NCBI GenBank assembly: GCA_017414385.1
Contig: JAFQMO010000154.1
Coordinates: 6,005-70,004 of the forward strand
DNA length: 64,000 nt
Origin: Clostridia bacterium
GTDB taxonomy: Bacteria > Bacillota > Clostridia > Oscillospirales > CAG-272
Reading direction: 5' to 3'
The stretch's first letter is position 1; each line of letters begins with the position of its first letter. Below the pieces are notes generated by a model that saw only the letters and a program-made list of their open reading frames with translations, did not search any database and had not been told where the DNA came from. This document shows positions 716 through 45,078 of this stretch, one piece after another. The position numbers and the translations under genes are program-made.

Positions 716-2260
716 TCAATCGTCATCGGAACGTGCCGCTGCCTCTTCCTGCAGTGCAGGATCGTAGGAGAGCATGGGCGCAACATCCTTACCCTTGATC
801 TTACGGTCAACATAGTTCGCCGTGATCTTCAGCACCAGCGGCATCAGCGCGAGGACACCGATCAGGTTGGGGATCATCATCAGACCGTTGAAGGTATCGG
901 AAAGATCCCAGGCAAGACCGCCCTCCATCACCGCACCGGACACGATCATCGCAACAAAGATCACCTTGTAAACCTTGACGCCCTTGGAGCCGAAGAGATA
1001 TTCCACCGCCTTGGAGCCGTACTGCGACCAGCCGAGCACCGTCGTAAACGCAAAGAACAGCATCGCAATGGCAACAAACCATGTACCGGGTGCACCGAAA
1101 TACTGACCGAACGCCTGGGAGATGAGTGTATCACCGTTGACACCGTCCAAAGGTGCACCGGTAGACAGATCGATATAGCCGGTCGAGAGAACGACGATCG
1201 CCGTCATCGTGCATACAACGAACGTATCAAAGAAGACCTCGAAAATACCCCACAGGCCCTGCTTGACAGGCTCCTTGACATTGGAGGAGGAATGAACGAG
1301 AACGGAGGAGCCAAGACCTGCCTCGTTTGAAAAGACGCCTCTCTTGAAGCCCTGTGTCATGGTCTTTTTGATCAGAACACCGATACCGCCGCCAAGAAAT
1401 GCAGCAGGGGTAAATGCGAACTTGAAGATGGAAACAAACATCGGACCGACCTGATCGATATTGATAAACAAAACGATCAGCGAGCCGATCACGAAAACGA
1501 CCGCCATGAAGGGTACCACGACCTCTGCAAATGCCGCAATACGGCGAAGACCGCCGATGATGATCAGCGCACCGACGATAAGAAGCACGATACCGATGCA
1601 GAGATGGATAATGTCGATCTCCGTTCCCGGGATCGTACCGAGGGATACATTTTTGAAGAACGCAGCGTCCATATTCAGAACGATCTTATTGATCTGCGCC
1701 ATGTTGCCGATACCGAAGGATGCAAGGATCGCAAAGCAGGAGAAAAGCACAGCAAGAACATTTGCCGGGATCTGCAGCCACTTTTTACCGTAACGCTTGC
1801 CCAGACCGTCCTTGAGGTAGTACATCGGACCGCCCGACCACTCGCCGTACTCATTGCGGCGGCGGTAATAGATACCGAGCAGGTTTTCGGAGAAGTTGGT
1901 CATCATGCCGAAGAACGCAGCGACCCACATCCAGAAGACCGCACCGGGACCGCCCGTTACGATCGCAGCTGCAACACCCGCGATATTACCTGTACCGACG
2001 GTCGCAGCCAATGCCGCACAAAGCGCCTGAAACTGCGAGATCGTCTTTGTATCGGTCTTTTGGGTTGCCGCGCTGTCCTTATGGAAAACGCTTGCAATGG
2101 TACGCTTCCACCAATGTCCGAGATGCGTGATCTGGAACACCCGTGTACCGACCGTCAAGAGAATGCCGGTACCGATGAGCAGCATGAGTCCGGGAAGACC
2201 CCATACCGCATCATTGACAGCACCGTTTACCGATGTGATGATTTCAAGAATTTGAGTCAT
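716..2260 (-). CDS. alanine/glycine:cation symporter (AGCS family, sodium:alanine symporter)
   Basis: Track ORF 716..2437(-). Polytopic membrane protein with AGCS-like motifs (TVGTGNIAGVAAAIVTGGPGAVFWMW, FSNEAGLGSS). Start moved to ATG 2260 (MTQILEII), with GGAGG 6 nt upstream. The upstream in-frame part overlaps the riboswitch. Confidence 0.93.
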   Translation of the reverse strand: MTQILEIITSVNGAVNDAVWGLPGLMLLIGTGILLTVGTRVFQITHLGHWWKRTIASVFHKDSAATQKTDTKTISQFQALCAALAATVGTGNIAGVAAAIVTGGPGAVFWMWVAAFFGMMTNFSENLLGIYYRRRNEYGEWSGGPMYYLKDGLGKRYGKKWLQIPANVLAVLFSCFAILASFGIGNMAQINKIVLNMDAAFFKNVSLGTIPGTEIDIIHLCIGIVLLIVGALIIIGGLRRIAAFAEVVVPFMAVVFVIGSLIVLFINIDQVGPMFVSIFKFAFTPAAFLGGGIGVLIKKTMTQGFKRGVFSNEAGLGSSVLVHSSSNVKEPVKQGLWGIFEVFFDTFVVCTMTAIVVLSTGYIDLSTGAPLDGVNGDTLISQAFGQYFGAPGTWFVAIAMLFFAFTTVLGWSQYGSKAVEYLFGSKGVKVYKVIFVAMIVSGAVMEGGLAWDLSDTFNGLMMIPNLIGVLALMPLVLKITANYVDRKIKGKDVAPMLSYDPALQEEAAARSDDD

Positions 2261-2281
2261 AGATAGCCTCCAAAGAAGATC

Positions 2282-2320
2282 AAAAAAAAAATTCGGGATA
2301 CGCCGTCGCATATCCCGAAT
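2282..2320 (-). terminator. riboswitch expression-platform terminator
   Basis: Reverse strand reads attcgggata-tgcgacggcg-tatcccgaat (10-bp stem) followed by a 9-10 nt T run, about 20 nt before the symporter RBS. Confidence 0.75.
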
Positions 2321-2360
2321 AAAAAACAAAACACAAAAATACCCAAGAGGTAGATGATTT

Positions 2361-2517
2361 GGTCTTTGTCCTTTTGCCTGAGAGTTTGCGTATTGACGCT
2401 TGCACCTTCGGCCCCCGCGCACAGCGGGCGTCTCCAAAGCTCTGTCCGTACACAGTCCTCATCCGAAACGGACACCTGAGAGCATTACTCCTTCGGCGGC
2501 TCAAAGCCCTTTCCTGC
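2361..2517 (-). promoter_or_regulatory. tandem glycine riboswitch (two aptamers)
   Basis: Reverse strand aptamer 1: GGAAAGGG..GCCGCCGAAGGAGUAA..CUCUCAGGU..GAGGACUG. Aptamer 2: CUUUGGAGACGCCCGC..GCGGGGGCCGAAGGUGCAAGCG..CUCUCAGGCAAAAGGACAAAG. These match the GGAGA / CCGAAGGnGCAA / CUCAGGCAAAAGGAC hallmarks. It lies upstream of an Ala/Gly symporter, a classic association. Confidence 0.8.
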
Positions 2518-2550: not shown

Positions 2551-2579
2551 ATTATATCACAAAAAAATAGGGTTGTCAA
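2551..2579 (-). promoter_or_regulatory. consensus promoter TTGACA-17-TATAAT driving riboswitch and symporter
   Basis: Reverse strand: TTGACA (2574-2579), 17-nt spacer ending TGTGA, TATAAT (2551-2556). Confidence 0.6.
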
Positions 2580-2637: not shown

Positions 2638-4371
2638 TTACGGCACAAGATCGATATCCGTCAGAACCGCCCGATGATCGGAAAGTGTGTCAAGGCCGTT
2701 TGCCGAAAGCTTGCCGTACCGCTTGAAGACACCGTCCTCGCTTGTGATCATGACAAAATCGATCGAGCGCTCCCCCTGACCGTTGTCGTAGGATTCCGCA
2801 TCGACGAGCGCATTCTTCATGCCGTTGATGCTCATAAAATACTGATACGATTCGGAGATATCGTTGCAATTGAAGTCTCCCGTAATGATGACAGGACACT
2901 GATATTCCGTTTTCAGCAACTGAATCTTTGCGGTGATCTCATCCGCCTGAACTCTGCGCAGATTCTCCTTCTTCTTTTCCTCTCCGAAATCCCAATGCGT
3001 CGATAGGAACGCAAATTTCACGTCCCTTTCGCTGTCGTAAAGCACCGCCCACGCGATATTGCGGCAGTTTTCGTCTTCGTGCTTGGAATATGCCTCAACA
3101 CCGCTTGCCAACAGCTCATACCTTGCAGCGTTGTAAACGATGGCAGAGAAATTGATCTCGCCGTCATCGCGCACACCGCCGATCAATTTGTAATCCTCTC
3201 CCAGATGGTACGGGACATACCGTTGCCAAGCATCACACAGCTCCTGAACACCGACAGCATCCGGCTGATAGACATCCAAAAGCGCACCGAAGCCCTCCGC
3301 ACGCGCGAAGGTATTCTCTCCGCCGTATTCCTCGGCGAGAACATTATACGAGACAATACGAAGATCGCTGCCCTCTGCCATCGGGTACTCCGTTTCTGTC
3401 AGAAACGATCCCGCACAGCTCACACCCGTCGTCAGCGCGACAGAGCCGTCTGAGGGAAGACCGTTTACGAAAAACGCATCTGCCGCTGCTGCCGCCGGCT
3501 CCGGATTATGACATCCGATCACGACCTTACCCGATTGCAGCAGTGCCTTGTATGCAAGCGAAGCGACATCTGCCGCTGCCGCACTCTCCGCGCGGTCGGT
3601 CTGTCCGACAAGGATCTCACACGCCTGCTCGGGTATCTCATCACTCACAATGGGAAGCACAAGTCCCGATGCGACCGCAACAGAATCGACGACCGCCTGT
3701 GCCATCTCCTTACCCATGGGATGCTCGTGATCATACACAACAACATAATCCGACAGCGGATTGCCGTCAAGGGTCATGCCGTCTGCTACGTAAGTCTTAT
3801 GATAAACACGGTCCTCAAATGCGTCAAACACATCACTGCCGTCTTCGCTGCGCACAATACCTGCGATCACAGTATCGCAAAAATACTGTACCGCATCAAA
3901 AAGTCCCTCTGCGGTATACGATGTGAGATAGATCTTGTTGCCGCGGATCGCAACCGCGTGGTCATACTGCTTCAAGCCCTGCAGAAGCGTCTCCGATTCC
4001 TCATAATTCGTACGTCCGACAATGATCTCATACTGCTCGGGATCGCGGACGGTATCCCATCCGATATAATCCGATTCGCTGACAAACGTCACACCTGTCG
4101 CATCCTCCAGCGCACCGCGCAGCACACGGACCTGATCAAAGACCGCCTGCTCACACCCGTCCGGATAAACGATACGGAAAAGCGCCGCCCCATTCCTTGT
4201 CAGCACCAATTTTGCAGCCGAAGCATCCTCTGTCACCGCATCTGTTGTCACAGCGGAGTCCGTGGAGCCTCCGTCATTTTTACCTGCATCACACGCAGCA
4301 AGACCGAGCACCGTCACAAGGATCAAAAAAAGACAAAAACAAAACCGAAGCGTATTCTTCATAAGCACCAT
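2638..4371 (-). CDS. lipoprotein with C-terminal endonuclease/exonuclease/phosphatase (EEP) domain
   Basis: Track ORF 2638..4395(-). Signal peptide plus lipobox (LILVTVLGLAAC). C-terminal EEP-like motifs (LRIVSYNVLAEE, ITGDFNC, SDHRAVLTDI). Start at 4371 (AAGGAAAGGA upstream) or 4362. Confidence 0.85.
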   Translation of the reverse strand: MVLMKNTLRFCFCLFLILVTVLGLAACDAGKNDGGSTDSAVTTDAVTEDASAAKLVLTRNGAALFRIVYPDGCEQAVFDQVRVLRGALEDATGVTFVSESDYIGWDTVRDPEQYEIIVGRTNYEESETLLQGLKQYDHAVAIRGNKIYLTSYTAEGLFDAVQYFCDTVIAGIVRSEDGSDVFDAFEDRVYHKTYVADGMTLDGNPLSDYVVVYDHEHPMGKEMAQAVVDSVAVASGLVLPIVSDEIPEQACEILVGQTDRAESAAAADVASLAYKALLQSGKVVIGCHNPEPAAAAADAFFVNGLPSDGSVALTTGVSCAGSFLTETEYPMAEGSDLRIVSYNVLAEEYGGENTFARAEGFGALLDVYQPDAVGVQELCDAWQRYVPYHLGEDYKLIGGVRDDGEINFSAIVYNAARYELLASGVEAYSKHEDENCRNIAWAVLYDSERDVKFAFLSTHWDFGEEKKKENLRRVQADEITAKIQLLKTEYQCPVIITGDFNCNDISESYQYFMSINGMKNALVDAESYDNGQGERSIDFVMITSEDGVFKRYGKLSANGLDTLSDHRAVLTDIDLVP

Positions 4372-9912: not shown

Positions 9913-10551
9913 TTATTTGGTGCCGAACAGTCTGTCGCCTGCGTCACCGAGACCGGGAACGATATAACCGATCTCATTGAGCTTTTCATCCACACAGCCT
10001 GTGTAGATCTGTACATCGGGATGATCCTGTGCCAGGCGCTCAACACCCTCGGGTGCTGCAAGGATGGATACGAACTTGATGTTGTTGCAGCCACGTGCCT
10101 TGATGAAGTTGATCGCAGCAGAGCCGCTTCCGCCGGTTGCAAGCATGGGGTCGAGCAGAATGACCTGTCTCTGCGCGATGTCCTCAGGCAGCTTGCAGTA
10201 ATACTCCTTGGGCTCCAGTGTGTCGTGATCGCGGTACAGACCGATATGACCGATCTTTGCGGAGGGAACCAGAGAAAGCACGCCGTCGAGCATACCGAGT
10301 CCTGCGCGCAGGATCGGAACCAGCGCAAGCTTCTTGCCTGCGAGCACCTTGACCTTGGCAACAGCAAGCGGTGTGGTAACCTCGACCTCCTCCATCGGAA
10401 GGTCGCGCATGACCTCATAGCCCATCAGCATAGCGATCTCGTTGACCAGCTCGCGGAATTGCTTTGCGCCGGTATTGACATCTCTGAGAATGGAGAGCTT
10501 ATGTGTGATAAGCGGATGATCGAAAACCGTGACATTTTGATAATTTTTCAT
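9913..10551 (-). CDS. upp: uracil phosphoribosyltransferase
   Basis: Full [27 protein letters not shown]..., PRPP-binding [14 protein letters not shown]-terminal [17 protein letters not shown]. Confidence 0.97.
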
Positions 10552-34493: not shown

Positions 34494-34557
34494 GTCCGCG
34501 GCCCATGGAGCCGAACAAGGGAAATTCACGCAAAAAGCATGGGGAATTGTGTAATCA

Positions 34558-34586
34558 CCTTGCATTTTCCCAAGATACGTGATATA
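34558..34586 (+). promoter_or_regulatory. promoter TTGCAT-17-TATAAT
   Basis: TTGCAT 34558-34563, 17-nt spacer, TATAAT 34581-34586. Upstream of the oxidoreductase gene. Confidence 0.55.
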
Positions 34587-34692
34587 ATATCATCAGAGAA
34601 GGACGTATGGACGACGCAAAAGCACGGACCTGCGTTTTTACATCAAAAAAAACAGATTTCAAATCCGATAAGGATCAGAAAGGAACAATCAC

Positions 34693-35787
34693 ATGGAGAA
34701 AAAGATCAGACTTGGTATCATCGGCTGCGGCGGTATCGCGCATAAGCATATGCAGGCATTTTTGCGGATTCCCGAGGTAGAGATCGTCGGCGGCGCCGAC
34801 ATCGTTCCCGGAAAGGCACGCGCGTTCTTTGACGAATTCGAGCTCTCCGATGCGCTCGCCTTCGACTGTGCAACAGATCTGCTCAAATGCGATCTGGATG
34901 CAGTTTCCATCTGTACCTACAATTCCCAGCACGCAGTCTGTGCTGTTGAGGCCTTGGAGGCAGGCTGTCATGTGCTTTTGGAAAAACCCATGTGTCTGAA
35001 CATGAAGGAGGCTGCGGAGATCTATGCGGCGGAAAAGAAGTCCGGCAAGATCCTGACCATCGGCTTCCAGCCCAGATACGGACAGAACTTCCGTCAGGTC
35101 AAGGAGATCATCTCCTCCGGCGCGCTCGGTGACGTCTACTACGTTCAGACCGGCGGCGGCAGAAGCCGCGGTATCCCCGGCAACACCTTCATCGACAAGG
35201 ACAAGGCAGGTGTCGGTGCGCTTGCAGACATCGGCTGCTATGCCCTCGACTTTGCCCTCAACTCCATCGGCTATCCCAAGCCCCTGACCGTTTCCGCCGT
35301 CGCATACGACTACTTCGGAAAGAATCCCAAGTACTATCCCGAGGCAGAGCGCTTCTCCGTTGACGATTTCTCCGCTGCCTTCATCCGTCTGGAGGGCGGC
35401 ATCACCCTTGACTTCCGTATGAGCTGGGCGATGCACATGGACACCACAGGCGACTTCCTGTTCCTCGGAAAGGATGCCGGCCTGAAGGTCAGACAGCCCG
35501 ATATGCATCCCTGGGGCGGTGCATGGGACGGCATTCTCGGTGAGGTCACCATGTTCCACGATGTATTCGGTCGTCCCACAAGCACCAAGATCCCCCTTGC
35601 AGAAGAGAAAAAGACCGACCTCTTCTACCTCAAGATCCGTTCCTTCGTTGATGCGGTCCTCACCGGCGGAAAGGCTCCCGTTCCTACCTCCGAGATCCTC
35701 TACAACCAGGCCATCATCGACGGTATCATCCGCTCCGTTGCGTGCGGTCATGAGGTCGAGACCGATCTTTCCTTCCTCGATAAATAA
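34693..35787 (+). CDS. Gfo/Idh/MocA-family NAD(P)-dependent oxidoreductase
   Basis: Full ORF. N-terminal Rossmann motif IRLGIIGCGGIAHKH. EKPMCLNMKEA motif typical of the family. Confidence 0.92.
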   Translation: MEKKIRLGIIGCGGIAHKHMQAFLRIPEVEIVGGADIVPGKARAFFDEFELSDALAFDCATDLLKCDLDAVSICTYNSQHAVCAVEALEAGCHVLLEKPMCLNMKEAAEIYAAEKKSGKILTIGFQPRYGQNFRQVKEIISSGALGDVYYVQTGGGRSRGIPGNTFIDKDKAGVGALADIGCYALDFALNSIGYPKPLTVSAVAYDYFGKNPKYYPEAERFSVDDFSAAFIRLEGGITLDFRMSWAMHMDTTGDFLFLGKDAGLKVRQPDMHPWGGAWDGILGEVTMFHDVFGRPTSTKIPLAEEKKTDLFYLKIRSFVDAVLTGGKAPVPTSEILYNQAIIDGIIRSVACGHEVETDLSFLDK

Positions 35788-35810
35788 AACAATTGTTCCA
35801 AATCCATGCT

Positions 35811-35849
35811 TCTGCCATATGCGTTTTTCGTGTATGGCAGATCTTTTTT
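35811..35849 (+). terminator. terminator after the oxidoreductase gene
   Basis: tctgccata / tatggcaga stem (35811-35819 / 35833-35841) followed by TCTTTTTT. Confidence 0.8.
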
Positions 35850-35893
35850 ATACAAAATACCGAAAATTTGTTCGTTTTTTCGTCCGAAACCTC

Positions 35894-35922
35894 TTGACAA
35901 ACACGGTTTTTCATGGTATAAT
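35894..35922 (+). promoter_or_regulatory. perfect consensus promoter TTGACA-17-TATAAT upstream of the phage-like block
   Basis: TTGACA 35894-35899, 17-nt spacer ending TGG (extended -10), TATAAT 35917-35922. Confidence 0.65.
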
Positions 35923-35929
35923 ATCGGTT

Positions 35930-36150
35930 ACAATACGAACATTTGTTTGTTTTCGTGTTGTAGAGCCCCCCAAAATGCCGTTGTGTGAAGGGAACACCTC
36001 TGCACGAAGCGGTACGCCTCCGAGGATGACAGACAAAGCCCCCCTGTACACATCGGAGGAAATACACGCATAAGCCCCCGAAGCAAAAAAAAGAAACGCG
36101 CGTATCCGCCGGCAGAAAAAACGCCGAGCGGTCTTAATCGCGCAGAAAAG
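35930..36150 (+). promoter_or_regulatory. about 230-nt structured leader with three AGCCCCC(C) motifs, class unknown
   Basis: 10-bp hairpin acaatacgaa/ttcgtgttgt (35930-35961). 7-bp helix cctccga/tcggagg (36017-36023 / 36053-36059) encloses acag..ctgt. AGCCCCCC occurs at 35964 and 36037, AGCCCCC at 36073. No credible ORF. Confidence 0.35.
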
Positions 36151-36162
36151 GAGCAGATCTGT

Positions 36163-37515
36163 ATGGTACAGGGAGCAACCTATGTATTACCGATCGCCCC
36201 CGCCGTTCCGCTTGAGGCGGTAAGGGAGATCATTTTTTCATTTGCAAACAAGCGGAAGGTCCTCGTACAGAAGCAGTATCCGGGCGAGGATACAGCGCTT
36301 CTCTCCGACGGGACCGTCGCCGTCTGTCTTTCACAGGAGGACACCGCGGCACTGACGGGAAAAACGGAGATCGAGGCGCAGTACATTTTCAAAAACGGCA
36401 CCGTTGCCAAAAGCGAGACTGCGCTCCGTTATTTTTCCCCGACGCTGTTCACAAAATTCACAGAGGCACACACAGACTATCTTTCTTCAAAAGATATGCT
36501 GTCCGTTCTTGAATTGAAGCCCGCAGAATCCTTTACGGTCGTCAACATCGGCATGCCGGGAAAGGACGGTGTGGGGATCGCTTCCGCGGAGCAGACAGAG
36601 ACCTCGCAGGAGAGCGGCGGCATCAACCGCTTCACGCTGTCACTGACAGACGGCACCGCGCACACCCTCGAGGTCCGAAACGGTCTTGACGGAAAGGACG
36701 GCGCTGACGGCAGAGACGGCATCTCCCTCCAACACGAATGGACAGGAACGGTGCTTTCCGTTACCTCCGAGGCAGGGACGAGTGCCGTCGATCTCGCAGG
36801 TCCCAGAGGACCGCAGGGCATTGCAGGAGATGTCGGTCCGCAGGGGCCTGAGGGTCCGCGCGGACCGGAGGGCCCGCAGGGGGCACCGGGTGTGCCCGGC
36901 GAGCGAGGCCCGAAGGGCGAGCAAGGCTTGCCCGGCGAGCAGGGTGTACCCGGCGAGACGGGACCTGCGGGCGAGCGGGGAGAGAGAGGCGAGACCGGCC
37001 CCGAGGGGCCTATGGGACCGCAAGGAGAAGCAGGACCCGCAGGTGCTGACGGCATCACCCCGCAGAAGGGCGTCGATTACTTCACAGAGGACGAGGTGAT
37101 CGCCTTTCAGAACGGCATTGCCAATCGCCTGACGGAGATCATCGGGGAGATCCCGCGCATCGAGATCGGCTGTTATGTCGGCACCGGAAGCTTCGGCAGC
37201 GAAAACGCCAACACCCTCTCCTTTGATTTCACACCGCGTCTTTGGGGCATTGCCTGCCACGGCAGCGCCACAAACGGAGACATTGCCAATCTTTCCGGAG
37301 TGTATTCCCATCCGCACATCTTTCCCTGGCAGGAAAGCGACACCTTCTGGGCAGACGTCGTCCAATATATGGGTACCAACGATGACGAAAACAAGGAGAT
37401 CTTCCTTCGATACAACGCAAACACCGTCACCTGGTACGCATCCGCGAGCGAGGGCTGCGAAACAGATCAGTTCAACGCCTCCCGTACTGCCTATTTTTAT
37501 TTTGCAATCGCATAA
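36163..37515 (+). CDS. collagen-like (Gly-X-Y) repeat protein, phage tail-fibre-like
   Basis: Full ORF, AAAAGGAG RBS. About 40 uninterrupted G-X-Y triplets (GPRGPQGIAGDVGPQGPEGPRGPEGPQGAPG...). Non-collagen N- and C-terminal domains. No signal peptide. Confidence 0.85.
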   Translation: MVQGATYVLPIAPAVPLEAVREIIFSFANKRKVLVQKQYPGEDTALLSDGTVAVCLSQEDTAALTGKTEIEAQYIFKNGTVAKSETALRYFSPTLFTKFTEAHTDYLSSKDMLSVLELKPAESFTVVNIGMPGKDGVGIASAEQTETSQESGGINRFTLSLTDGTAHTLEVRNGLDGKDGADGRDGISLQHEWTGTVLSVTSEAGTSAVDLAGPRGPQGIAGDVGPQGPEGPRGPEGPQGAPGVPGERGPKGEQGLPGEQGVPGETGPAGERGERGETGPEGPMGPQGEAGPAGADGITPQKGVDYFTEDEVIAFQNGIANRLTEIIGEIPRIEIGCYVGTGSFGSENANTLSFDFTPRLWGIACHGSATNGDIANLSGVYSHPHIFPWQESDTFWADVVQYMGTNDDENKEIFLRYNANTVTWYASASEGCETDQFNASRTAYFYFAIA

Positions 37516-37527
37516 AGGAGGCAGCAC

Positions 37528-37815
37528 ATGAAACGACTGATCGAGATCACAGCACAGAAAAACGGCGCGCACCGAAACCGCATCTGTTTTCAAAGGACCG
37601 TATCCGTCCCCGACGGATGGGCAGTCATTGCAGACGGTCTGCAGACGGAGAATTTTCCCTTCGGCGACGTCACGGTACGCGAGGAGGACGGTGTCATGAC
37701 CGTCACATCCTGGAATGCGCTTCCGCTCCCGCCCGTCTCCGAGGACGGAGAGGAACGCATCACAGCATCCGATATTTTGAATGTACTTTTGGGGGAGGAA
37801 GACCGTGAAGAATAA
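37528..37815 (+). CDS. small phage protein (XkdW-like position and size)
   Basis: Full ORF, 95 aa, AAAGGAGG RBS. Acidic C-terminus. Lies directly after the fibre gene. Confidence 0.6.
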   Translation: MKRLIEITAQKNGAHRNRICFQRTVSVPDGWAVIADGLQTENFPFGDVTVREEDGVMTVTSWNALPLPPVSEDGEERITASDILNVLLGEEDREE

Positions 37816-38245
37816 ATTGAAAAAAGCATCTCAGCTGCGCCGTCTCCTGCTTTTGAGCGCGCAGGGACTGGATACCGATGCGGCAATGCAGGTCGCCTGT
37901 ATTTTTGAGGCATGGGGCGCGGGGCGCGACTACACAGGCGGCGAATATTTCACCTACGGTGAGAACGCCGTCGGCGACCCGCAGCTGTACCGCGTCAACG
38001 AGGGTATGGCACATCGCAGCCGTGAGGAATGGATCCCCGGCACCGATGCCGCAGCCGCTCTTTACACTGCCATTGGTCTGGATACGGCGGGGTATCCCAT
38101 CTGGTCCGCACCGACGGGAGCACACGATGCATACGATCTTGGGGACACCGTCAATCACGGCGGCACGCTTTACGTATCCGAGATCGACGGAAACTGCACA
38201 GCTCCGGGGGAGGATTCGCGCTTCTGGCGTATCCTTACCCGCTGA
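37805..38245 (+). CDS. phage-associated protein with two CBM5/12-like carbohydrate-binding repeats
   Basis: Part of track ORF 37781..38245(+). GTG 37805 follows GGGGGAGGAAG and overlaps the upstream stop. Two W..x..Y..GD.V.Y.G..Y-type repeats (EAWGAGRDYTGGEYFTYG...; WSAPTGAHDAYDLGDTVNHGGTLYV). Confidence 0.62.
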   Translation: MKNKLKKASQLRRLLLLSAQGLDTDAAMQVACIFEAWGAGRDYTGGEYFTYGENAVGDPQLYRVNEGMAHRSREEWIPGTDAAAALYTAIGLDTAGYPIWSAPTGAHDAYDLGDTVNHGGTLYVSEIDGNCTAPGEDSRFWRILTR

Positions 38246-38274
38246 TCTGTCATCAAAAGGGGGACATATCACTG

Positions 38275-38490
38275 ATGAAGCATATACTGACATGGGCATG
38301 GCTGCGCGCTGCGCTGATCCGTGCCGTAAGGACCGTTGCACAGAGCGCCGCAGCCACGATCGGCTGTGCCGCTGTGCTTGGCGATGTCGATTGGTGCATG
38401 ACGGCATCTGCCGCCGTGCTTGCAGGCATTTTATCTCTTCTGACCTCCGTTGCGGGACTTCCTGAGGTCGGAGAGGAGGCAGATACATGA
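38275..38490 (+). CDS. holin (r1t-holin-like, 2 TM, 71 aa)
   Basis: 3' part of track ORF 38029..38490(+). Start at ATG 38275 (MKHILTWAWLRAALIRAVRTVAQSAAATIG), AAAAGGGGGA upstream. Two hydrophobic helices and an acidic tail. Confidence 0.7.
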   Translation: MKHILTWAWLRAALIRAVRTVAQSAAATIGCAAVLGDVDWCMTASAAVLAGILSLLTSVAGLPEVGEEADT

Positions 38491-38735
38491 GTGCAGGATC
38501 TGTCATTGCGCTGATCGGTCTGATCCTCTCCTTCGTCATTGCGTTTGCTCGCTTTGTGGCGGGCCTTGCGGAATTCTCCGCTGCAGTCCGTTCGCTGACG
38601 GAGGAGGTCAAATCCATCAAGCGCGCATCACAAAAGGAGCACGACGAGCTTTGGCAGACACTGGACCGCCACGAGGATCGTATCCGCCATCTTGAGCTTG
38701 AGGGCAGACACCCCGAAGGAGGATATCTTGACTGA
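38487..38735 (+). CDS. small N-terminal-TM / coiled-coil protein of the lysis module
   Basis: Full ORF, 82 aa. The ATG overlaps the holin stop (ATGA). TM helix VIALIGLILSFVIAFARFVAGL, then a charged helix. Confidence 0.62.
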   Translation: MSAGSVIALIGLILSFVIAFARFVAGLAEFSAAVRSLTEEVKSIKRASQKEHDELWQTLDRHEDRIRHLELEGRHPEGGYLD

Positions 38736-39537
38736 CAATCGAAAAATCGGCATCGACATCTCGACCTATCAGAAATCGGCAGACTGGGGCAGGGCTGCGG
38801 CGGACGGCATCTCCTTTGCCATGATCAAGGCAACGCAGGGGCGCTCGGAGGGCGATGCATCGCTGTATCTGTTTACCGACAGCTGCTTTGAGCAGAACAT
38901 CCTGGGTGCCGCCGAAAACGGCATCGCCTGCGGTGTTTACCACTATCTGACCGCCTCCGACACGGCAGGTGCGCTGGAGGAGGCGGATTATTTTCTGTCT
39001 GTCATCGCGCCGTTTCGCCGTCAGATCACCCTTTATGCCGCCGTCGATGTGGAATCCAAATATCTGCCGACGGACAAGGCACGTCTGACGGAGATCACAG
39101 ACGTTTTCTGTGCCCGTGTGGAGGCAGCGGGATTTGTACCGATGGTCTACACCAACCCCGCGTTTCTTGCCAACCGTCTCGGCGATATCGGAAAATGGAA
39201 GCTTTGGCTTGCACTCTGGCGTGATCGGTCGCAGCTTCCCGATCCTGCCTGCTATCCGAATCTCACCCTATGGCAGTGGGGTGCGGAAAACCGCAGCTGG
39301 GTCGGCGGATCGGGTGCGGTTGCACTCAATCTCGATCTCAGCGAGGAGGCAATGGACACGGACACCGTATCCGACTGGGCGGTACAGGCCATGGCATGGG
39401 CGGAGGAGGCAGGGCTTTTCATCGGAGACGAAAACGGTGCGCTGCGCCCCGGTCAGCCGATCACAAGAGAACAGGCAGCACTTCTGTTTTTCCGTTTTTT
39501 GGATTATCTCAAGGGGCAATCTCATCTTTTCCGCTAA
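38728..39537 (+). CDS. GH25 muramidase (endolysin) with C-terminal SLH-like wall-binding repeat
   Basis: Track ORF 38692..39537(+). TTG 38728 follows GAAGGAGG by 5 nt and overlaps the upstream stop. GH25 motifs GIDISTYQ, FAMIKATQG, GVYHY, LWQWG. C-terminal SDWAVQAMAWAEEAGLFIGDENGALRPGQPITREQAALLFFRF. Confidence 0.85.
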   Translation: MTDNRKIGIDISTYQKSADWGRAAADGISFAMIKATQGRSEGDASLYLFTDSCFEQNILGAAENGIACGVYHYLTASDTAGALEEADYFLSVIAPFRRQITLYAAVDVESKYLPTDKARLTEITDVFCARVEAAGFVPMVYTNPAFLANRLGDIGKWKLWLALWRDRSQLPDPACYPNLTLWQWGAENRSWVGGSGAVALNLDLSEEAMDTDTVSDWAVQAMAWAEEAGLFIGDENGALRPGQPITREQAALLFFRFLDYLKGQSHLFR

Positions 39538-39550
39538 AGTCTTTTCCGGA

Positions 39551-39581
39551 CACCGCCGCATTTGCGGCGGTGCTTTTTTTG
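39551..39581 (+). terminator. terminator after the endolysin gene
   Basis: caccgccgca-tt-tgcggcggtg followed by CTTTTTTTG. Confidence 0.85.
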
Positions 39582-39621
39582 TTCTCCCCGACACTGCAGC
39601 GGAAAGCCTCGCCGATCCCCG

Positions 39622-39652
39622 GGTCATTTGCAGTCGCAAATGACCTTTTTCT
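39622..39652 (+). terminator. second, orphan terminator-like hairpin
   Basis: ggtcatttgc-agtc-gcaaatgacc followed by TTTTTCTT, 40 nt after the first terminator. No ORF lies between them. Confidence 0.55.
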
Positions 39653-39824
39653 TGCGTGCGGCACATCCAATCACCTGCAAAGCATCTCCTCTCATCCACG
39701 CTCCAATATAACTGCTCTGCCGCCGCGCAAGAGGACCGCCGCCGCAGGCGGCGCGGGGATCGGCGCCCCCTCCTCTTCTGCACCCGCAAAGCGTGTGAAG
39801 ACGACAAAAAACATCGGTTTTTCA

Positions 39825-39902: not shown

Positions 39903-41285
39903 ATGCTGTTTGCTGACCTTTTTTTCCTTTTTTTGTTTCTCCCCCTCTGCTTGACCGCGTACTTTTCAAGTAAAAATGTGAAGTGGCGTAACCTCGTGCT
40001 CATCGTCTTTTCCCTTGTCTTTTACGCATGGGGCGAGCCCTTTTACGTCCTTCTTCTGATCTTATCCGTCGTGATCAATTATCTTCTCGGACGTGTCATC
40101 GGTTCTCCGTCCGCATCGCAAACAAAGAAAAAAGCCGCCGTTCTCGGTGCCGTCATCACCGATCTTGCACTGCTCGGCGTATTCAAATACAGCGGATTTC
40201 TTGTGGAAAATCTCAATCTGATCCTCCCCGTGGATCTGCCCGTCCCCGCGATCCGTCTCCCCATCGGTATCTCCTTCTATACCTTCCAGGCCATCTCCTA
40301 TGTCGTCGATGTCTATTGGGAGAGAACGGAGATGCAGAAAAGCTTTTGGAAATTCCTTCTGTATATCTCCATGTTTCCGCAGCTCATTGCAGGCCCCATC
40401 GTCCGCTATACCGACATTGCCGCCGAGATCGACGAGCGCCATGCAAGTGTGGATGATATATACGCCGGCATGATCCGCGTCATCTGCGGTCTTGCAAAAA
40501 AGGTCGTCATCGCAAATTCGCTCAGCACCGTCGTTGAGGGGATCTTCGCAGGCCCCATGACCTTGCTTGCCGCATGGACGGGTGCTGCCGTATTTGCTCT
40601 GCAGGTCTACTTTGACTTCTCCGGCTATTCCGATTTCGCCATCGGTCTCGGACGGATCTTCGGCTTCCACTTCAACGAGAACTTCAACTATCCCTTTGTC
40701 AGCACCACCATCGGTGAATTCTGGCAGCGCTGGCATATTTCCCTGGGCTCCTTCTTCCGCGATTATCTGCTCATGATCCCCATCTTCGGCAAACGACGCG
40801 GTTATCTGAACCTATTCATCGTTTGGTTCTGCACCGGTCTCTGGCACGGCGCAAGCTGGAATTTTATCCTTTGGGGCGTCTATTTCGGTCTGTTCATTTT
40901 AGCGGAAAGTCTGATCGGCAAAAAGAAGCTCAAAAGGGTTCCGCGTCCCCTCATGCATATCTATACGAAGCTTGTGCTCATCGTCGGCTTCGGTATCTTC
41001 TATTTTGAGGACATCGGTGCGCTCGGCACCTTCTTTGGCGGGCTTGTCGGCGTCGGCGGTCTTTACAATAAGCTGACCATGAATGTCATCGTCAACAACT
41101 GCTTCCTCATTGCCGCAGCGATCCTGCTCTCCCTGCCCGTTCTTTCCTATCTGCGCAGGAAGCTTCCCGCAGAATCCCGCACGCTTGTGATCTGCGAATC
41201 GGTCTGCTGTGTCGTTCTGCTCTTTTTGTCCGCGACGATGCTTGTCAACGCCACCAACAATCCCTTTTTGTATTTCAGATGGTAA
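39903..41285 (+). CDS. MBOAT-family membrane O-acyltransferase (DltB/AlgI-like)
   Basis: Full ORF, AAAGGAG RBS. Polytopic. MBOAT hallmarks (FYTFQAISYVVDVY, FPQLIAGPIVR, FWQRWHISLGSFFRDY, WHGASWNF with the conserved His). Confidence 0.93.
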   Translation: MLFADLFFLFLFLPLCLTAYFSSKNVKWRNLVLIVFSLVFYAWGEPFYVLLLILSVVINYLLGRVIGSPSASQTKKKAAVLGAVITDLALLGVFKYSGFLVENLNLILPVDLPVPAIRLPIGISFYTFQAISYVVDVYWERTEMQKSFWKFLLYISMFPQLIAGPIVRYTDIAAEIDERHASVDDIYAGMIRVICGLAKKVVIANSLSTVVEGIFAGPMTLLAAWTGAAVFALQVYFDFSGYSDFAIGLGRIFGFHFNENFNYPFVSTTIGEFWQRWHISLGSFFRDYLLMIPIFGKRRGYLNLFIVWFCTGLWHGASWNFILWGVYFGLFILAESLIGKKKLKRVPRPLMHIYTKLVLIVGFGIFYFEDIGALGTFFGGLVGVGGLYNKLTMNVIVNNCFLIAAAILLSLPVLSYLRRKLPAESRTLVICESVCCVVLLFLSATMLVNATNNPFLYFRW

Positions 41286-41303
41286 GAAACGGAGGTCCAT
41301 GCT

Positions 41304-42998
41304 ATGAAAACACTGAAAACCGTCATCATTGCCGCCGTTTCCTGTCTTGTGCTCGCTGTGGGCGTTCTGCTGTGCGTTCTGCCCCGTCCCACTTACTCCG
41401 ATACCGAAAAAAGGCCGCTTGCATCGTTCCCAACCTTTTCCGTCGAGTCATATCTGTCCGGTGATTTCACCTCCGGCATCAACGCTTATTACAATGACAC
41501 CATTCCCGGCCGCGATTTCTTCAAGGACCTGACCGGCCGTATCTCCAAGCTGTTCGGTCTGCGTCCCGATGACGTCAAGATCTATATTCCAAACGGCGGA
41601 AACGGACTGCTTGAGGGCGACGAGGAGACCACAGAGGATCCGTATGCGGTCACCATGCCCGAGGATGCGGAGCCCGCGCTGCCCAATGCGCCCAAGGACA
41701 CCGAGGAGGCAACGGATACCGAGCCCGTCGACACAGAGGCCCCCGTTACCGAGGAGCCCGGCACCGACACCGCCCCCGTCACAAACGATCCCGCCGAGAC
41801 AGAGGACATTGAAACAGAGCCTGTCGGCACCATCCTTGCCGTTGTCATCGACAAAACACATCTGGATCTGTACACCGACAGAGAATACACCTTCGACGTC
41901 CGTCTCAGACAGCAGGGTACCCCCGAGGACCGCACCGTCACCATCACCGCAGATCCTCCCTATATCGTTTCCATCGACGGCTTCACGGTTCGCGGCATAC
42001 AGCAGGGCGAGACAACACTCACCTTCTCTGCCGCAAACGGCGTCACAACGACCTGTACGGTCAGCGTTACCATCGATCCCAACCGCGATACGGGCGCCGT
42101 GGTCGACGATTATCTGGCGCAGTACGGCGTCATCATCTCCGGTACCCGCGCCATGTCCTTGTACGGCGGAAGCTATAACTCCGCGCGTACCTATATGGCA
42201 TCGCTTGAATCCTACTACCAGGATCTTGGCGGCGAGGTCAATGTCTATTCCATGGTCATCCCCACCGCAAGCGAATTCTACTGTCCCGACAGCTACGCCT
42301 CCTACAATGCAAGCCAGCAGAAGATGTGCAATTATATCCGCGACAATTTAAGCGGCAATGTCCGCCATGTCGAGGTCTATACGCCTCTGTCGGAGCACTG
42401 CGATGAGGATATCTACCTGCGCACCGACCACCATTGGGCACCGCTCGGCGCATACTATGCCGCAAAGGCGTTTGCAGAGACGGCCGGCGTTCCGTTTGCA
42501 GATCTGTCCACCTTCAATGAGCACGTCATCGAGGGCTTCCTCGGCACTATGTACTCCGTCTATACGCAGGACCCGATCCTTCTGGAAAATCCCGAGGACT
42601 TCGTTTACTATACACCCAATAACGTCAGCTATACAACGACCTATCAGAAGCCTGACGGTACCGGTCTTTATACAAGCGCATTCTTTATCCCGATGAGCTC
42701 CCGCGGCGGTGCGTACTGCACCTTCATGGGCGGCGATGACAAGATCACGCACGTCTCCACGCAGGCAGGCACGGGCAGAAAGCTCGTCATCATCAAGGAA
42801 AGCTTCGGCAACGCGCTCCCCGGCTACCTCTTCGGCTCCTTTGATGATATCTATATCATCGACCTGCGCTATTTTGCGCTCAACACCATCGAATTTATCA
42901 AGGAAACGGGTGCCACGGATCTTCTCTTTGCGACCTGTACCTTTACGGCAACCGGCCCCGCAAGTCTGTTTGAAAGAATGCGTGTGCAGGCACCCTGA
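41304..42998 (+). CDS. DHHW-family extracytoplasmic protein (AlgJ/AlgX-type SGNH-like) with acidic linker and Big_2-like Ig domain
   Basis: Full ORF. N-terminal signal anchor. E/T/P/D-rich linker. Ig-like segment (TVTITADPPYIVSIDGFTVRGIQQGETTLTFSAANGVTTTCTVSV). YLRTDHHWAPLGAYYAAKAF motif. Confidence 0.88.
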   Translation: MKTLKTVIIAAVSCLVLAVGVLLCVLPRPTYSDTEKRPLASFPTFSVESYLSGDFTSGINAYYNDTIPGRDFFKDLTGRISKLFGLRPDDVKIYIPNGGNGLLEGDEETTEDPYAVTMPEDAEPALPNAPKDTEEATDTEPVDTEAPVTEEPGTDTAPVTNDPAETEDIETEPVGTILAVVIDKTHLDLYTDREYTFDVRLRQQGTPEDRTVTITADPPYIVSIDGFTVRGIQQGETTLTFSAANGVTTTCTVSVTIDPNRDTGAVVDDYLAQYGVIISGTRAMSLYGGSYNSARTYMASLESYYQDLGGEVNVYSMVIPTASEFYCPDSYASYNASQQKMCNYIRDNLSGNVRHVEVYTPLSEHCDEDIYLRTDHHWAPLGAYYAAKAFAETAGVPFADLSTFNEHVIEGFLGTMYSVYTQDPILLENPEDFVYYTPNNVSYTTTYQKPDGTGLYTSAFFIPMSSRGGAYCTFMGGDDKITHVSTQAGTGRKLVIIKESFGNALPGYLFGSFDDIYIIDLRYFALNTIEFIKETGATDLLFATCTFTATGPASLFERMRVQAP

Positions 42999-43045
42999 TC
43001 GGCACGGCACGCCGCACAACGATACCAAAGGAGGACGATCCCATC

Positions 43046-44791
43046 ATGTCCGAGCCTATCACCTATAAAACGCTTGAACGTGCAGCAAAGCAGCACACAG
43101 GCACACCGATCTCCGTCGCCGTTCTCGGAAACGCCGCAACACAGCGCCTCTCCCGGGCGTTCGCGGGCGCGCTCTCCCTCTCCGGCTTCGATGTCACCTG
43201 CTTTGACGCGGGCTACGATCAGATCGATGCGCAGATTCTTGACACCGACTCCGAGCTCTACCGCGCGGACCCTGCATATATTCTTCTGTTTCTCTGTGCG
43301 GAAAAGCTGCTCGATGCCTTCCGTACAACACCGACGGCAGAGCGTCCGCTTTTTGCGGAGCACATGGCGGATCGGATCCGCTCCTATCTTGCGCTGATCG
43401 AATCCCGTCTGCGCGCAACGGTTTTTCTCTGTGACATTCCCGCTCATGACGACGGCGTTTTCGGCGACTATGCCTATTCTCAGCCAATGTCCTTCCCTTA
43501 TCAGATGCGTAAGCTCAATTTCCTGCTCTCCGAAACGGCGGCGGCAGACAAGCATCTGCGCATCGTGCCGCTCTCCCTCATCATGGCGCAGCACGGCAAT
43601 ACCGCACGGGATGAGAGAATGTACCTTGCGGCAAGAATGGCCATCTCCGATTCGGTAACGGCAGACCTTGCCCTCCGTGTGGCGCGTGAGATCTCGATCT
43701 TGCGCGGTGCGATCAAAAAGGCGGTCATTCTCGACCTTGACAACACCCTTTGGGGCGGTGTCATCGGTGACGACGGCCCGGACGGCATTGCGCTCGGCGA
43801 GCTTGGCGAGGGACGCGCCTTCACTGCCATGCAGTCCTGGCTGAAGGAGCTCCGTATGCGCGGCATCATCCTTGCCGTCTGCTCCAAAAACGAGGAGGAG
43901 GCTGCCCGTCTGCCCTTCACCTCCCACCCCGATATGATCCTGCGCACAGACGACATCTCCGTCTTCTGCGCCAACTGGAACGACAAGGCCTCCAACATTG
44001 CCGCTATTCAGAAGACATTGAACATCGGCTTTGATTCGATGGTCTTTCTTGACGACAATCCCTTCGAGCGCGAGCAGGTCAAGGCGGTCCATCCGACGGT
44101 GACCGTTCCCGAGCTGCCCGAGGATCCCGCTATGCGTCTGCCGTATCTGCTTTCTCTCAATCTCTTCGGCACATCCTCCTATTCCGATGATGATGCCAAC
44201 CGTACGGCACAGTATATTGCGGAGGCTGCACGCGTCAAGTCGGCGCAGTCCTTTGCCGATTACGGCGAATACCTGAAAAGTCTGCAGATGCAGGCAGAGG
44301 TCACGCCGTTTGTCCCATATTGGTATGAACGCATCGCCGAGCTCTCCCAGCGCTCCAATCAGTTCAACCTCCGTACCCTGCGCATGACCGCAGCAGACGT
44401 CGAGCACTACGCCTCCAACGAGGACTATATCACCCTCGCCTTTACGCTTGCCGATAAATTCGGCTCGCACGGACTGATCTCCGTCGTATTGCTGAAGCGG
44501 ATCCCCGAGGGTTGGTTTATCGAAAACTGGTTCATGAGCTGCCGTGTTCTCAAGCGCGGCATGGAGGATTTTATCCTCGGCACGCTGATCGAAAAAACGG
44601 GCGGCGCTCTGTACGGGGAATACATTCCCACAAAGAAAAACGCATTGGTCGCATCCCTGCTTGATTCGCTCGGATTTGAGATGTACGAAATCGACGAAAC
44701 GGGAAAAAAGCAATACGTTCTGCCTGCGGGATGTGCGGCAAAGCCGACCCATATCAAAGGAACGGCTCCGGATCCCGGACAAAACGCGTGA
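43046..44791 (+). CDS. FkbH-like HAD-IIIC family protein (putative ACP-loading enzyme)
   Basis: Full ORF, AAAGGAGG RBS. HAD motifs VILDLDNTLWGGVIGDDG, LAVCSKNEE, VFLDDNPFERE. C-terminal FMSCRVLKRGMEDF, as in FkbH-type proteins. Confidence 0.88.
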   Translation: MSEPITYKTLERAAKQHTGTPISVAVLGNAATQRLSRAFAGALSLSGFDVTCFDAGYDQIDAQILDTDSELYRADPAYILLFLCAEKLLDAFRTTPTAERPLFAEHMADRIRSYLALIESRLRATVFLCDIPAHDDGVFGDYAYSQPMSFPYQMRKLNFLLSETAAADKHLRIVPLSLIMAQHGNTARDERMYLAARMAISDSVTADLALRVAREISILRGAIKKAVILDLDNTLWGGVIGDDGPDGIALGELGEGRAFTAMQSWLKELRMRGIILAVCSKNEEEAARLPFTSHPDMILRTDDISVFCANWNDKASNIAAIQKTLNIGFDSMVFLDDNPFEREQVKAVHPTVTVPELPEDPAMRLPYLLSLNLFGTSSYSDDDANRTAQYIAEAARVKSAQSFADYGEYLKSLQMQAEVTPFVPYWYERIAELSQRSNQFNLRTLRMTAADVEHYASNEDYITLAFTLADKFGSHGLISVVLLKRIPEGWFIENWFMSCRVLKRGMEDFILGTLIEKTGGALYGEYIPTKKNALVASLLDSLGFEMYEIDETGKKQYVLPAGCAAKPTHIKGTAPDPGQNA

Positions 44792-44835
44792 TCCCCCTTA
44801 TTTCACAAATATACAATGGAAAGGAATTTACCGAT

Positions 44836-45078
44836 ATGACAAGAGAAGCCGTTATCGAAAAACTGAATGAGATCTTCCGCGACGTCTTTGACGACGAGTC
44901 CATCGAGGTCACCGACGAGATGACCGCCGAGGACATCGAGGACTGGGACTCCCTTACCCACCTCACCATGATCAGCGAGGTGGAAAGCGCCTTCGGTATG
45001 CGCTTCAAGATGAAGGACATCTCTACGATGAAGAACGTCGGCGAGATGATCGCCATCATTTGTGCAAGCACGAACTGA
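44836..45078 (+). CDS. acyl carrier protein (stand-alone, 80 aa)
   Basis: 3' part of track ORF 44731..45078(+). Start at ATG 44836 (MTREAVIEKLNEIFRDVF), GGAAAGGAA upstream. Phosphopantetheine-site motif DWDSLTHL. Confidence 0.88.
   Translation: MTREAVIEKLNEIFRDVFDDESIEVTDEMTAEDIEDWDSLTHLTMISEVESAFGMRFKMKDISTMKNVGEMIAIICASTN

Follow-up and report, generated by a model that had tools for sequence, protein, structure and literature searches.

A phage-derived fibre and lysis operon under purifying selection, with candidate LexA-type operators at its promoter, in a Clostridia chromosome

A block of six genes encoding a collagen-like tail fibre, two small proteins (p95 and p146), a holin, a small membrane protein with a coiled-coil stretch (p82) and a muramidase (the lysin) lies among housekeeping genes in the chromosome of a Clostridia bacterium of the order Oscillospirales (CAG-272), and the same block, under purifying selection since the two species split, occupies the same site in a second species. 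The block spans positions 35894-39652 of the stretch of DNA analysed here (the window, 64 kb of contig JAFQMO010000154.1 from assembly GCA_017414385.1), to which all coordinates refer, and the sequence base consists of this window together with contigs of the same region of at most 51 kb. Sequence comparisons indicate that the parts of the block are of phage origin and that, as a whole, it represents the end of the late operon from a siphovirus-type prophage of this bacterial family. On balance, we lean towards the view that it now serves as a domesticated operon, probably repressed by LexA, that would lyse the cell and release the fibre.

Retention of the operon at an orthologous site

Exact and near-exact protein look-ups returned copies of the block from the same species at about 99% nucleotide identity and with identical arrangement (L081-L084 and L094-L098), including a contig of a metagenome-assembled genome (MAG; L083) and a 51-kb JGI contig (L094). 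One MAG contig with the block is JAZPRX010000126 (assembly GCA_054279375.1). A second species is represented by two contigs from one sample (L091 and L099) and one from another project (L105), which together are collinear with window positions 34521-39670 at 84-86% nucleotide identity, a span that comprises the flanking oxidoreductase gene and its terminator, the promoter, the leader, the six genes and both operon terminators. Since the block occupies an orthologous site in two species, it was present there in their common ancestor. Nonsynonymous (dN) and synonymous (dS) divergence between the two species was estimated by the Nei-Gojobori method. The dS of the six genes ranges from 0.34 to 0.64, similar to that of the flanking host oxidoreductase gene (dS 0.47, dN/dS 0.04), while dN/dS is 0.06 for the holin gene (dS 0.34), 0.09 for p82 (dS 0.53), 0.12 for p146 (dS 0.62), 0.15 for the fibre (dS 0.64), 0.16 for the lysin (dS 0.60) and 0.17 for p95 (dS 0.51). 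Coding indels comprise whole codons only (+1 in p82 and +2 in the lysin), and stop codons or frameshifts occur in none of the 12 copies, which derive from at least 10 assemblies. Conservation along the fibre is highest in the N-terminal 130 amino acids (89% amino acid identity, dN 0.060) and lowest at the tip (78%, dN 0.124).

The block is therefore under purifying selection since the species split, and orthology combined with purifying selection leads us to reject passive erosion. The original prediction had left two readings side by side, the eroded right end of a PBSX-like prophage and a domesticated module, and had proposed to separate them by looking for a complete prophage in related genomes and for relaxed selection. 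The second species holds the same six-gene block at the same site rather than a complete prophage, and dN/dS values of 0.06-0.17 across all six genes give no sign of relaxed selection; the phage origin implied by both readings stands and the domesticated module is favoured, whereas the notion of a decaying end falls. Among GTDB species representatives, 80 loci with homologues of the oxidoreductase (at most 84% amino acid identity) were recovered, none of which shares neighbours with the window or carries the block, and these loci are therefore uninformative on the insertion site; exact-protein look-ups with two flanking genes found nothing. As a separate observation on the same-species copies, the contigs L081 and L082, which come from independent assemblies, both start inside the -10 region of the block promoter (window positions 35913 and 35911). 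No repeat accounts for this break, which may reflect chance, low coverage of AT-rich sequence or a strain variant at the left junction.

The block stands alone in its surroundings. Pfam scans of about 45 further open reading frames (ORFs), together with the gene tables of contigs L083 and L094, revealed housekeeping genes only, in agreement with the earlier description of an orphan block: no other phage gene (integrase, repressor, terminase, portal, capsid, tail or baseplate) was found in the 64-kb window, and no phage structural gene lies within 35 kb to the left or 24 kb to the right. The window also contains no tRNA gene, and no convincing att-like direct repeats were detected, the repeats inside the fibre gene being collagen repeats. 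Codon usage of the block, judged host-like by eye in the original prediction, proved to be so when measured (pooled z = -1.05 against 34 host genes), with the holin gene (71 codons) as the sole outlier among the six.

Gene content and organization

The region 35894-39652 forms one transcription unit of six intact ORFs on the plus strand with short or overlapping junctions, and the gene calls on the near-identical public contigs L083 and L094 agree with all six, reproducing the coordinates and overlaps initially given for them. The fibre gene (36163-37515) encodes 450 amino acids with a Collagen domain (PF01391, E 8e-16) and can be divided into an N-terminal part (residues 1-130), a collagen-flanked repeat region (131-215), a G-X-Y collagen stretch (215-300) and a tip (326-450); residues 135-329 match many PHROG tail-fibre families. 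It is followed by p95 (37528-37815), a small, acidic protein of 95 amino acids without a family match. Searches of Pfam (including PF09636), PHROG and PDB sequences returned nothing for p95, leaving its former designation as XkdW-like unsupported. The gene for p146 (37805-38245; 146 amino acids) has a GTG start and overlaps that of p95 by 11 nt. It matches phrog_27545 (E 2.5e-9); the CBM5/12 repeats once ascribed to p146 reduce to one motif that scores below the Pfam threshold (18.5 bits against a cut-off of 26.2).

The remaining three genes constitute the lysis cassette. The holin (38275-38490; 71 amino acids) is of the r1t type (Phage_r1t_holin PF16945, E 4e-12; phrog_443), and its gene shares an ATGA overlap with that of p82 (38487-38735; 82 amino acids), which matches phrog_1009 (E 2.6e-7) and consists of an N-terminal hydrophobic, transmembrane helix followed by a heptad-rich coiled-coil stretch, with no match to XhlA. 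The lysin gene (38728-39537; 269 amino acids) begins with a TTG codon that overlaps the p82 stop codon, and its product combines a Glyco_hydro_25 domain (GH25, E 1e-30) with a single C-terminal SLH repeat (E 4e-10). Inspection of the lysin N-terminus, MTDNRKIGIDIS, revealed no hydrophobic leader and no signal peptide. Its catalytic Asp (GIDIS) and Asp-x-Glu (VDVE) motifs align with D9 and D98/E100 of cellosyl (1jfx), and both motifs are kept in the second species. A PF16945 holin adjacent to a signal-less peptidoglycan hydrolase is the canonical arrangement of a phage lysis cassette. None of the six block proteins matches the PADLOC defence models.

Phage ancestry of the genes

Structural and sequence comparisons both point to phage as the source of the block, as had been proposed. 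The fibre tip (residues 326-450) has 717 homologues, which occur standalone or as the C-terminal part of proteins with PHROG tail-fibre N-terminal parts. An AlphaFold2 model of the tip (predicted local distance difference test score, pLDDT, 82) retrieved tail fibre proteins from BFVD with Foldseek (E 7e-8 to 5e-5, TM-scores up to 0.68). The model also weakly resembles the receptor-binding domains of phage K gp144 and phi812; the best match to a gC1q domain was far poorer (E 0.24, probability 0.15). The fibre N-terminus (residues 1-130) has almost no relatives, with a weak match to phrog_15594 (E 7.5e-5), and its AlphaFold2 prediction from a three-sequence alignment (pLDDT 36) gave no usable model. 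A relationship of this domain to BppU_N, suggested by match names, was rejected (hhalign probability 0.1%, no Pfam match).

For the lysis genes, the closest phage relatives are found in contigs of about 40 kb (L100-L103), where an adjacent pair is 66-71% identical to the holin and about 50% identical to the lysin, alongside genes for a P22-type portal, a capsid protein and a fibre. The related phage lysins share the GH25+SLH architecture, which is thus ordinary for lysins in phages of this clade and lends no weight to the earlier idea of the SLH repeat as a special wall tether; p82 is absent between holin and lysin in these relatives. In Acutalibacter phage Fontainebleau, the gene that immediately precedes the holin gene encodes a protein 44% identical to p146, and the right genome end of this phage reads p146 homologue, holin, amidase. 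The p146 protein is also 50% identical to a three-repeat protein in a phage tail-fibre cluster (L093), where an 87-amino-acid protein with a p95-like C-terminal end (…ILNALLG) occupies the position of p95, before the p146 homologue. Scans of viral contigs with the fibre, p146, lysin and promoter DNA yielded collagen-repeat matches only, or nothing, and a concatenated query (fibre N- and C-domains, p95 and p146) returned three proteins and missed known copies, so that absence of homologues from this last search is weak evidence. No PBSX-specific family was found in the block, and the label PBSX-like amounts to a positional analogy.

Two features of these phage genomes were recorded in passing. 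In the Fontainebleau segment examined (L104, ON453893.1, 27893-39241), a reverse-transcriptase gene lies among the tail genes, just upstream of the p146 homologue, the holin and the amidase, suggesting a diversity-generating retroelement. In L100-L103, the lysin gene is followed by genes for proteins of 2,082-2,509 amino acids without a Pfam match.

Promoter region and predicted LexA control

The operon begins with a sigma-A promoter at 35894-35922 (plus strand), in which TTGACA (35894-35899) and a 17-nt spacer precede an extended -10 element (TG-TATAAT, hexamer at 35917-35922). This promoter scores 12 of 12, predicts a transcript start near 35929 and is followed by a 240-nt leader, confirming the perfect consensus and long leader noted at the outset. 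Perfect TTGACA-TATAAT sites with spacers of 16 to 18 nt are present at four positions in the 64 kb (2551, 19586, 35894 and 39825), where chance alone predicts none, and three of the four begin with TTGACAAAC, which therefore places the block promoter within the host's own strong-promoter style; full-consensus promoters at operon starts seem to be routine in this organism.

Around this promoter lie three LexA/Cheo-type boxes, each with at most one mismatch to the eight specified bases. Box2 (35936-35949, CGAAC-ATTT-GTTTG), which in the predicted transcript spans roughly +7 to +20, is the only exact CGAACN4GTTYG match in 64 kb and is fully conserved in the second species. Box1 (35861-35874, CGAAA-ATTT-GTTCG), located 20 nt upstream of the -35 element with one mismatch, is likewise 100% conserved and contains the 8-mer TTTGTTCG. 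Box0 (35787-35798, AAAC-AATT-GTTC), a possible operator, directly follows the stop codon of the oxidoreductase gene, and in the second species both half-sites are kept with the spacer changed to GTTT. The box cores start at 35787, 35862 and 35937, giving a spacing of exactly 75 bp twice, and the three boxes bracket the promoter. The Firmicute LexA site reads GAAC-N4-GTTC, with the variants GAACnnnnGTTT/C used in clostridial regulon prediction, and Box2 has the form GAACnnnnGTTT (PMC4234289). Strict GAACN4GTTY matches or their complement occur at two sites in 64 kb, both at the block and with the one-mismatch box between them, whereas the background rate would give about 0.1 box in the 376-bp spacer. 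Conservation follows the same pattern: the segment from Box1 through the promoter to Box2 is 87% identical between the species without gaps, compared with 59% and 18 gap columns in the middle of the leader, and Box1, Box2 and both promoter hexamers are invariant.

A comparison with known SOS genes was possible through uvrB: in related Oscillospirales loci, all three uvrB genes carry a box containing TTTGTTCG beside the promoter, an 8-mer whose frequency is 0.035 per kb in the genomes that carry those genes. The uvrB-upstream boxes, which read CAAAT(A/G)TTTGTTCG or ATACGTTTGTTCG (L050, about 9990-10005; L053, about 9985-10000; L068, about 3460-3475), are themselves candidate LexA boxes with one strong half-site in three Oscillospirales MAGs, and could seed a family-specific SOS motif. 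No lexA or recA gene was found in the fetched loci or the window. The phage relatives L100-L104 have no LexA-type boxes before their homologous late genes, and the control region of the block therefore looks acquired in the host. We consider LexA control of the operon to be fairly probable as a prediction from these motifs; such operators around the promoter, which the original prediction did not mention, would explain why a consensus promoter stands in front of a lethal cassette, and the promoter anatomy suggests that the block has been rewired so that DNA damage triggers it. Box1 was also considered as a CodY box, and this was rejected in favour of LexA, as by eye only half a site fits.

The transcript itself appears to be structured. 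A 5'-terminal stem-loop of the predicted mRNA (35930-35961, plus strand) forms 12 pairs and encloses Box2, with one pair preserved between the species by a compensatory exchange of A-U for G-C, and it may act as a 5' stabiliser. In the 3' part of the leader, a hairpin at 36098-36143 (plus strand) sits shortly before the ribosome-binding site (AAGGAG, 36148-36153); its stems are invariant and its loop differs by a 6-nt indel between the species, which, with no covariation, is suggestive only. Rfam returned nothing for the leader at E values up to 1, a glycine riboswitch being found only elsewhere in the window, and a candidate leader ORF (ATG at 35975, 32 amino acids) was rejected on loss of its start codon in the second species. 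The unit is delimited on the left by the terminator of the upstream oxidoreductase gene (35811-35841, plus strand; a 13-bp stem followed by a T-run); both arms of this stem have changed in the second species in such a way that it is preserved. On the right, two terminators on the plus strand close the operon: the first (39551-39572) has a 9-bp stem with eight G-C pairs followed by T7 and is conserved in the second species, and the second (39621-39646), which marks the right boundary, conserves its stem and differs in its loop.

Proposed mechanism and alternative explanations

According to the favoured explanation, an ancient siphovirus-type prophage would have lost all other phage genes, with its late-operon end surviving and being kept by the host as one chromosomal operon under host-type control. 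In undamaged cells, LexA dimers bound to up to three boxes, which at a spacing of 75 bp (about seven helical turns) bracket and overlap the extended -10 promoter, would silence the lethal operon. Following DNA damage, active RecA would promote LexA self-cleavage, and the six genes would be expressed as one mRNA with a structured 240-nt leader ending at the two terminators, as the anatomy of the region suggests. The fibre would then trimerise in the cytoplasm, possibly aided by p95 and p146. By analogy with known phage holin-endolysin pairs, the holin, perhaps together with p82, would permeabilise the membrane, allowing the signal-less GH25 muramidase to reach the wall, bind through its SLH repeat and cleave peptidoglycan. 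The cell would lyse or shed vesicles, and the fibre would leave with the cytoplasmic contents.

Several points weigh against this explanation. A fibre without a virion has no obvious use, and the most conserved part of the fibre is its N-terminal domain, which normally docks to the virion; this is easier to reconcile with a partner encoded at another locus than with a free fibre. The block has been seen in two species only. With regard to LexA, three one-mismatch boxes fall within 200 bp of each other somewhere in about 6% of shuffled 64-kb trials, and it is position, spacing, conservation and the uvrB comparison in combination that carry the case for LexA. Box0 is the weakest of the three boxes, overlapping a stop codon, and coding constraint explains part of its conservation. 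The motif applied here combines the general Firmicute consensus with three uvrB genes of other genera and may not be the species' own.

The N-terminal end bears directly on an explanation that we hold to be unlikely yet worth serious consideration, namely that the block acts in trans as one locus of a phage-derived particle encoded at several sites. The structural genes of this particle (tailocin, gene transfer agent or defective prophage) would lie elsewhere and all its loci would be co-induced by the SOS response, with the block fibre as its receptor-binding protein and the cassette as its means of release. We know of no multi-locus particle of this kind in Clostridia. The fibre has changed least (dN 0.060) at the end that normally docks to a baseplate and most (0.124) at the tip, the latter as in working receptor-binding proteins, and a weak match links its N-terminal domain to a phage family (phrog_15594, E 7.5e-5). 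There is also a precedent in the Rhodobacter capsulatus gene transfer agent (RcGTA), encoded in five loci of which two serve cell recognition and binding (PMC5026251), and tail fibre genes are enriched in incomplete prophages, from which lysis genes are usually lost (PMC7744054); however, no structural genes are present within 35 kb to the left or 24 kb to the right. An idea that we rate as quite doubtful covers two forms of use beyond the single cell, either a host-owned device for SOS-triggered altruistic lysis, in which some of the damaged or phage-induced cells burst and free a trimeric receptor-binding fibre that acts on their neighbours, or a locus that provides recognition and release for a multi-locus tailocin or gene transfer agent. 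In the altruistic form, the freed fibre might mask a wall-polymer receptor from related phages or serve as a kin mark.

Holin-mediated, non-lytic export of the fibre in the manner of TcdE/TcdL or Serratia ChiWXYZ, with the muramidase opening the wall locally, had been put forward in the original prediction from the signal-less fibre co-transcribed with a holin and a wall hydrolase, and p82, an extra membrane protein absent in the phage relatives, could modulate the holin. We now find this improbable: phage fibres never have signal peptides, which makes the feature uninformative, the lysin keeps its catalytic residues and wall-binding repeat under purifying selection, unlike TcdL, which is a degenerate endolysin fragment, and the promoter is of the sigma-A type with SOS-type boxes rather than a TcdR-type sigma-factor promoter. 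Collagen-like proteins of the exosporium in Bacillus and Clostridioides likewise lack signal peptides, and a signal-less collagen-like protein adjoining a lysis cassette could recall a sporulation module, in which a BclA-like spore-surface fibre would be made by the mother cell and the holin and lysin would serve mother-cell lysis. Such a role is highly improbable, as the promoter is a perfect sigma-A consensus rather than a sigma-E or sigma-K one, the tip matches phage tail-fibre tips (E 7e-8) rather than the C1q-like head of BclA, and phage genomes show synteny for p146 and the holin-lysin pair. Finally, the gene order corresponds to the right end of known phages of the bacterial family, which would suit a remnant that is decaying neutrally after a recent prophage deletion and is still intact for lack of time. 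This is hardly credible in view of the shared site in two species with dS of about 0.5, as in the flanking host gene, dN/dS of 0.06-0.17 in six genes, 12 copies free of frameshifts and stops, a promoter and boxes more conserved than the neighbouring non-coding DNA, the lack of att-like repeats and the host-like codon usage.

Relationship to known systems

The block shares its basic history with the vertically inherited, domesticated defective prophages reportedly described by Bobay et al. in 2014, including an orthologous position, purifying selection, loss of integration, replication and packaging genes, and retention of a tail fibre gene, a class enriched in incomplete prophages. It differs from them in being a single 3.7-kb operon with a host-type promoter and in keeping all lysis genes, of which those for the holin (0.06) and p82 (0.09) are the most constrained, whereas in incomplete prophages tail fibre genes are enriched and the dangerous lysis genes are usually the first to be lost (PMC7744054).

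Prophage lysis genes under SOS control offer a second parallel. In Pseudomonas aeruginosa, Lys from the pyocin cluster acts in explosive cell lysis. Prophage genes for the Epel endolysins of extraintestinal pathogenic Escherichia coli (ExPEC) are directly repressed by LexA (PMC9621596), and in Bacillus subtilis genotoxic stress induces the holin-endolysin of PBSX, a defective prophage, which causes vesicles to be released (PMC5589764). The block resembles these systems in its phage-derived holin-endolysin and in the candidate LexA operators at its promoter, with control predicted and with genotoxic-stress induction and lysis of a fraction of cells proposed. In contrast, theirs are embedded in larger prophage or tailocin clusters, while the block is isolated and co-transcribes its lysis genes with a fibre. 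Compared with XhlAB-XlyA of PBSX, an r1t holin and a GH25+SLH lysin replace XhlB and an amidase, and the block is without contractile-tail genes.

The lysis genes of RcGTA lie at a separate locus. Like that agent, the block keeps cell-recognition genes of a phage-derived element at a chromosomal locus apart from any structural cluster and is subject to host-level selection; RcGTA, however, is alphaproteobacterial and regulated by CtrA/GafA, whereas the block is found in a Firmicute, is predicted to be under LexA and has no known structural cluster. Closer relatives by descent are phages: Fontainebleau (ON453893) also has tail or fibre genes, a p146 homologue, a holin and an endolysin at its right end, and the contigs of about 40 kb from Acutalibacteraceae siphophages carry the same kind of r1t holin and GH25+SLH pair. 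Unlike the block, these are complete phages with portal, capsid and tape-measure genes, and their late genes have neither LexA-type boxes nor a consensus promoter, and lack p82.

Genomic surroundings

To the left of the block lie infB, nusA, rimP and genes for an ABC transporter, a DUF4340 protein, a CDF transporter and the GFO/Idh/MocA oxidoreductase, and to the right follow genes for MBOAT, DHHW and FkbH proteins and an acyl carrier protein (ACP), then rpmG, secE, nusG, rplK and rplA; the gene tables continue with rbfA, truB, a PASTA kinase gene, fmt, def and priA. The MBOAT, DHHW, FkbH_N and small ACP-like genes form an operon (39903-45078) with its own perfect promoter (39825), which looks like an uncharacterised wall-polymer O-acylation system. 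In a 21-kb comparison with L083 (99.2% identical), the differences cluster at window positions 40000-41000 and 42500-43000: 45 fall within 1 kb in the MBOAT gene and 16 within 500 nt at the 3' end of the DHHW gene, where other parts show about 2-3 per 500 nt. This surface-polymer acylation operon beside the block is the most variable part of the comparison, and recombination or diversifying selection may be responsible. Farther away, the glycine riboswitch (RF00504, 57.5 bits; 2356-2447, minus strand) lies directly upstream of a Na+/alanine symporter gene (716-2437, minus strand), with a perfect consensus promoter nearby (2551-2579, minus strand).

Biological implications

Domesticated remnants of prophages are already known, as is the deployment of phage lysis genes upon an SOS trigger. 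What is new here is an element cut down to an isolated fibre-plus-lysis operon, the retention of all its lysis genes under strong constraint although this gene class is usually lost first (PMC7744054), and its apparent rewiring, in which phased LexA-type boxes accompany a consensus promoter of the host. Both the full lysis cassette and the fibre gene have stayed in working order through a species split, downstream of a promoter that the host's DNA-damage repressor seems to keep closed. Confirmation would raise the question of what purpose a tail fibre serves without a tail. If the altruistic or the multi-locus form were true, a phage fibre would work outside a self-propagating virus and under direct LexA control. 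The 3.7-kb unit is small enough for transfer into a model Firmicute. If confirmed, the domesticated operon would provide a compact and tractable case of host-programmed lysis in uncultured gut or rumen Clostridia, with a bearing on how vesicles, DNA and public goods are released in anaerobic communities.

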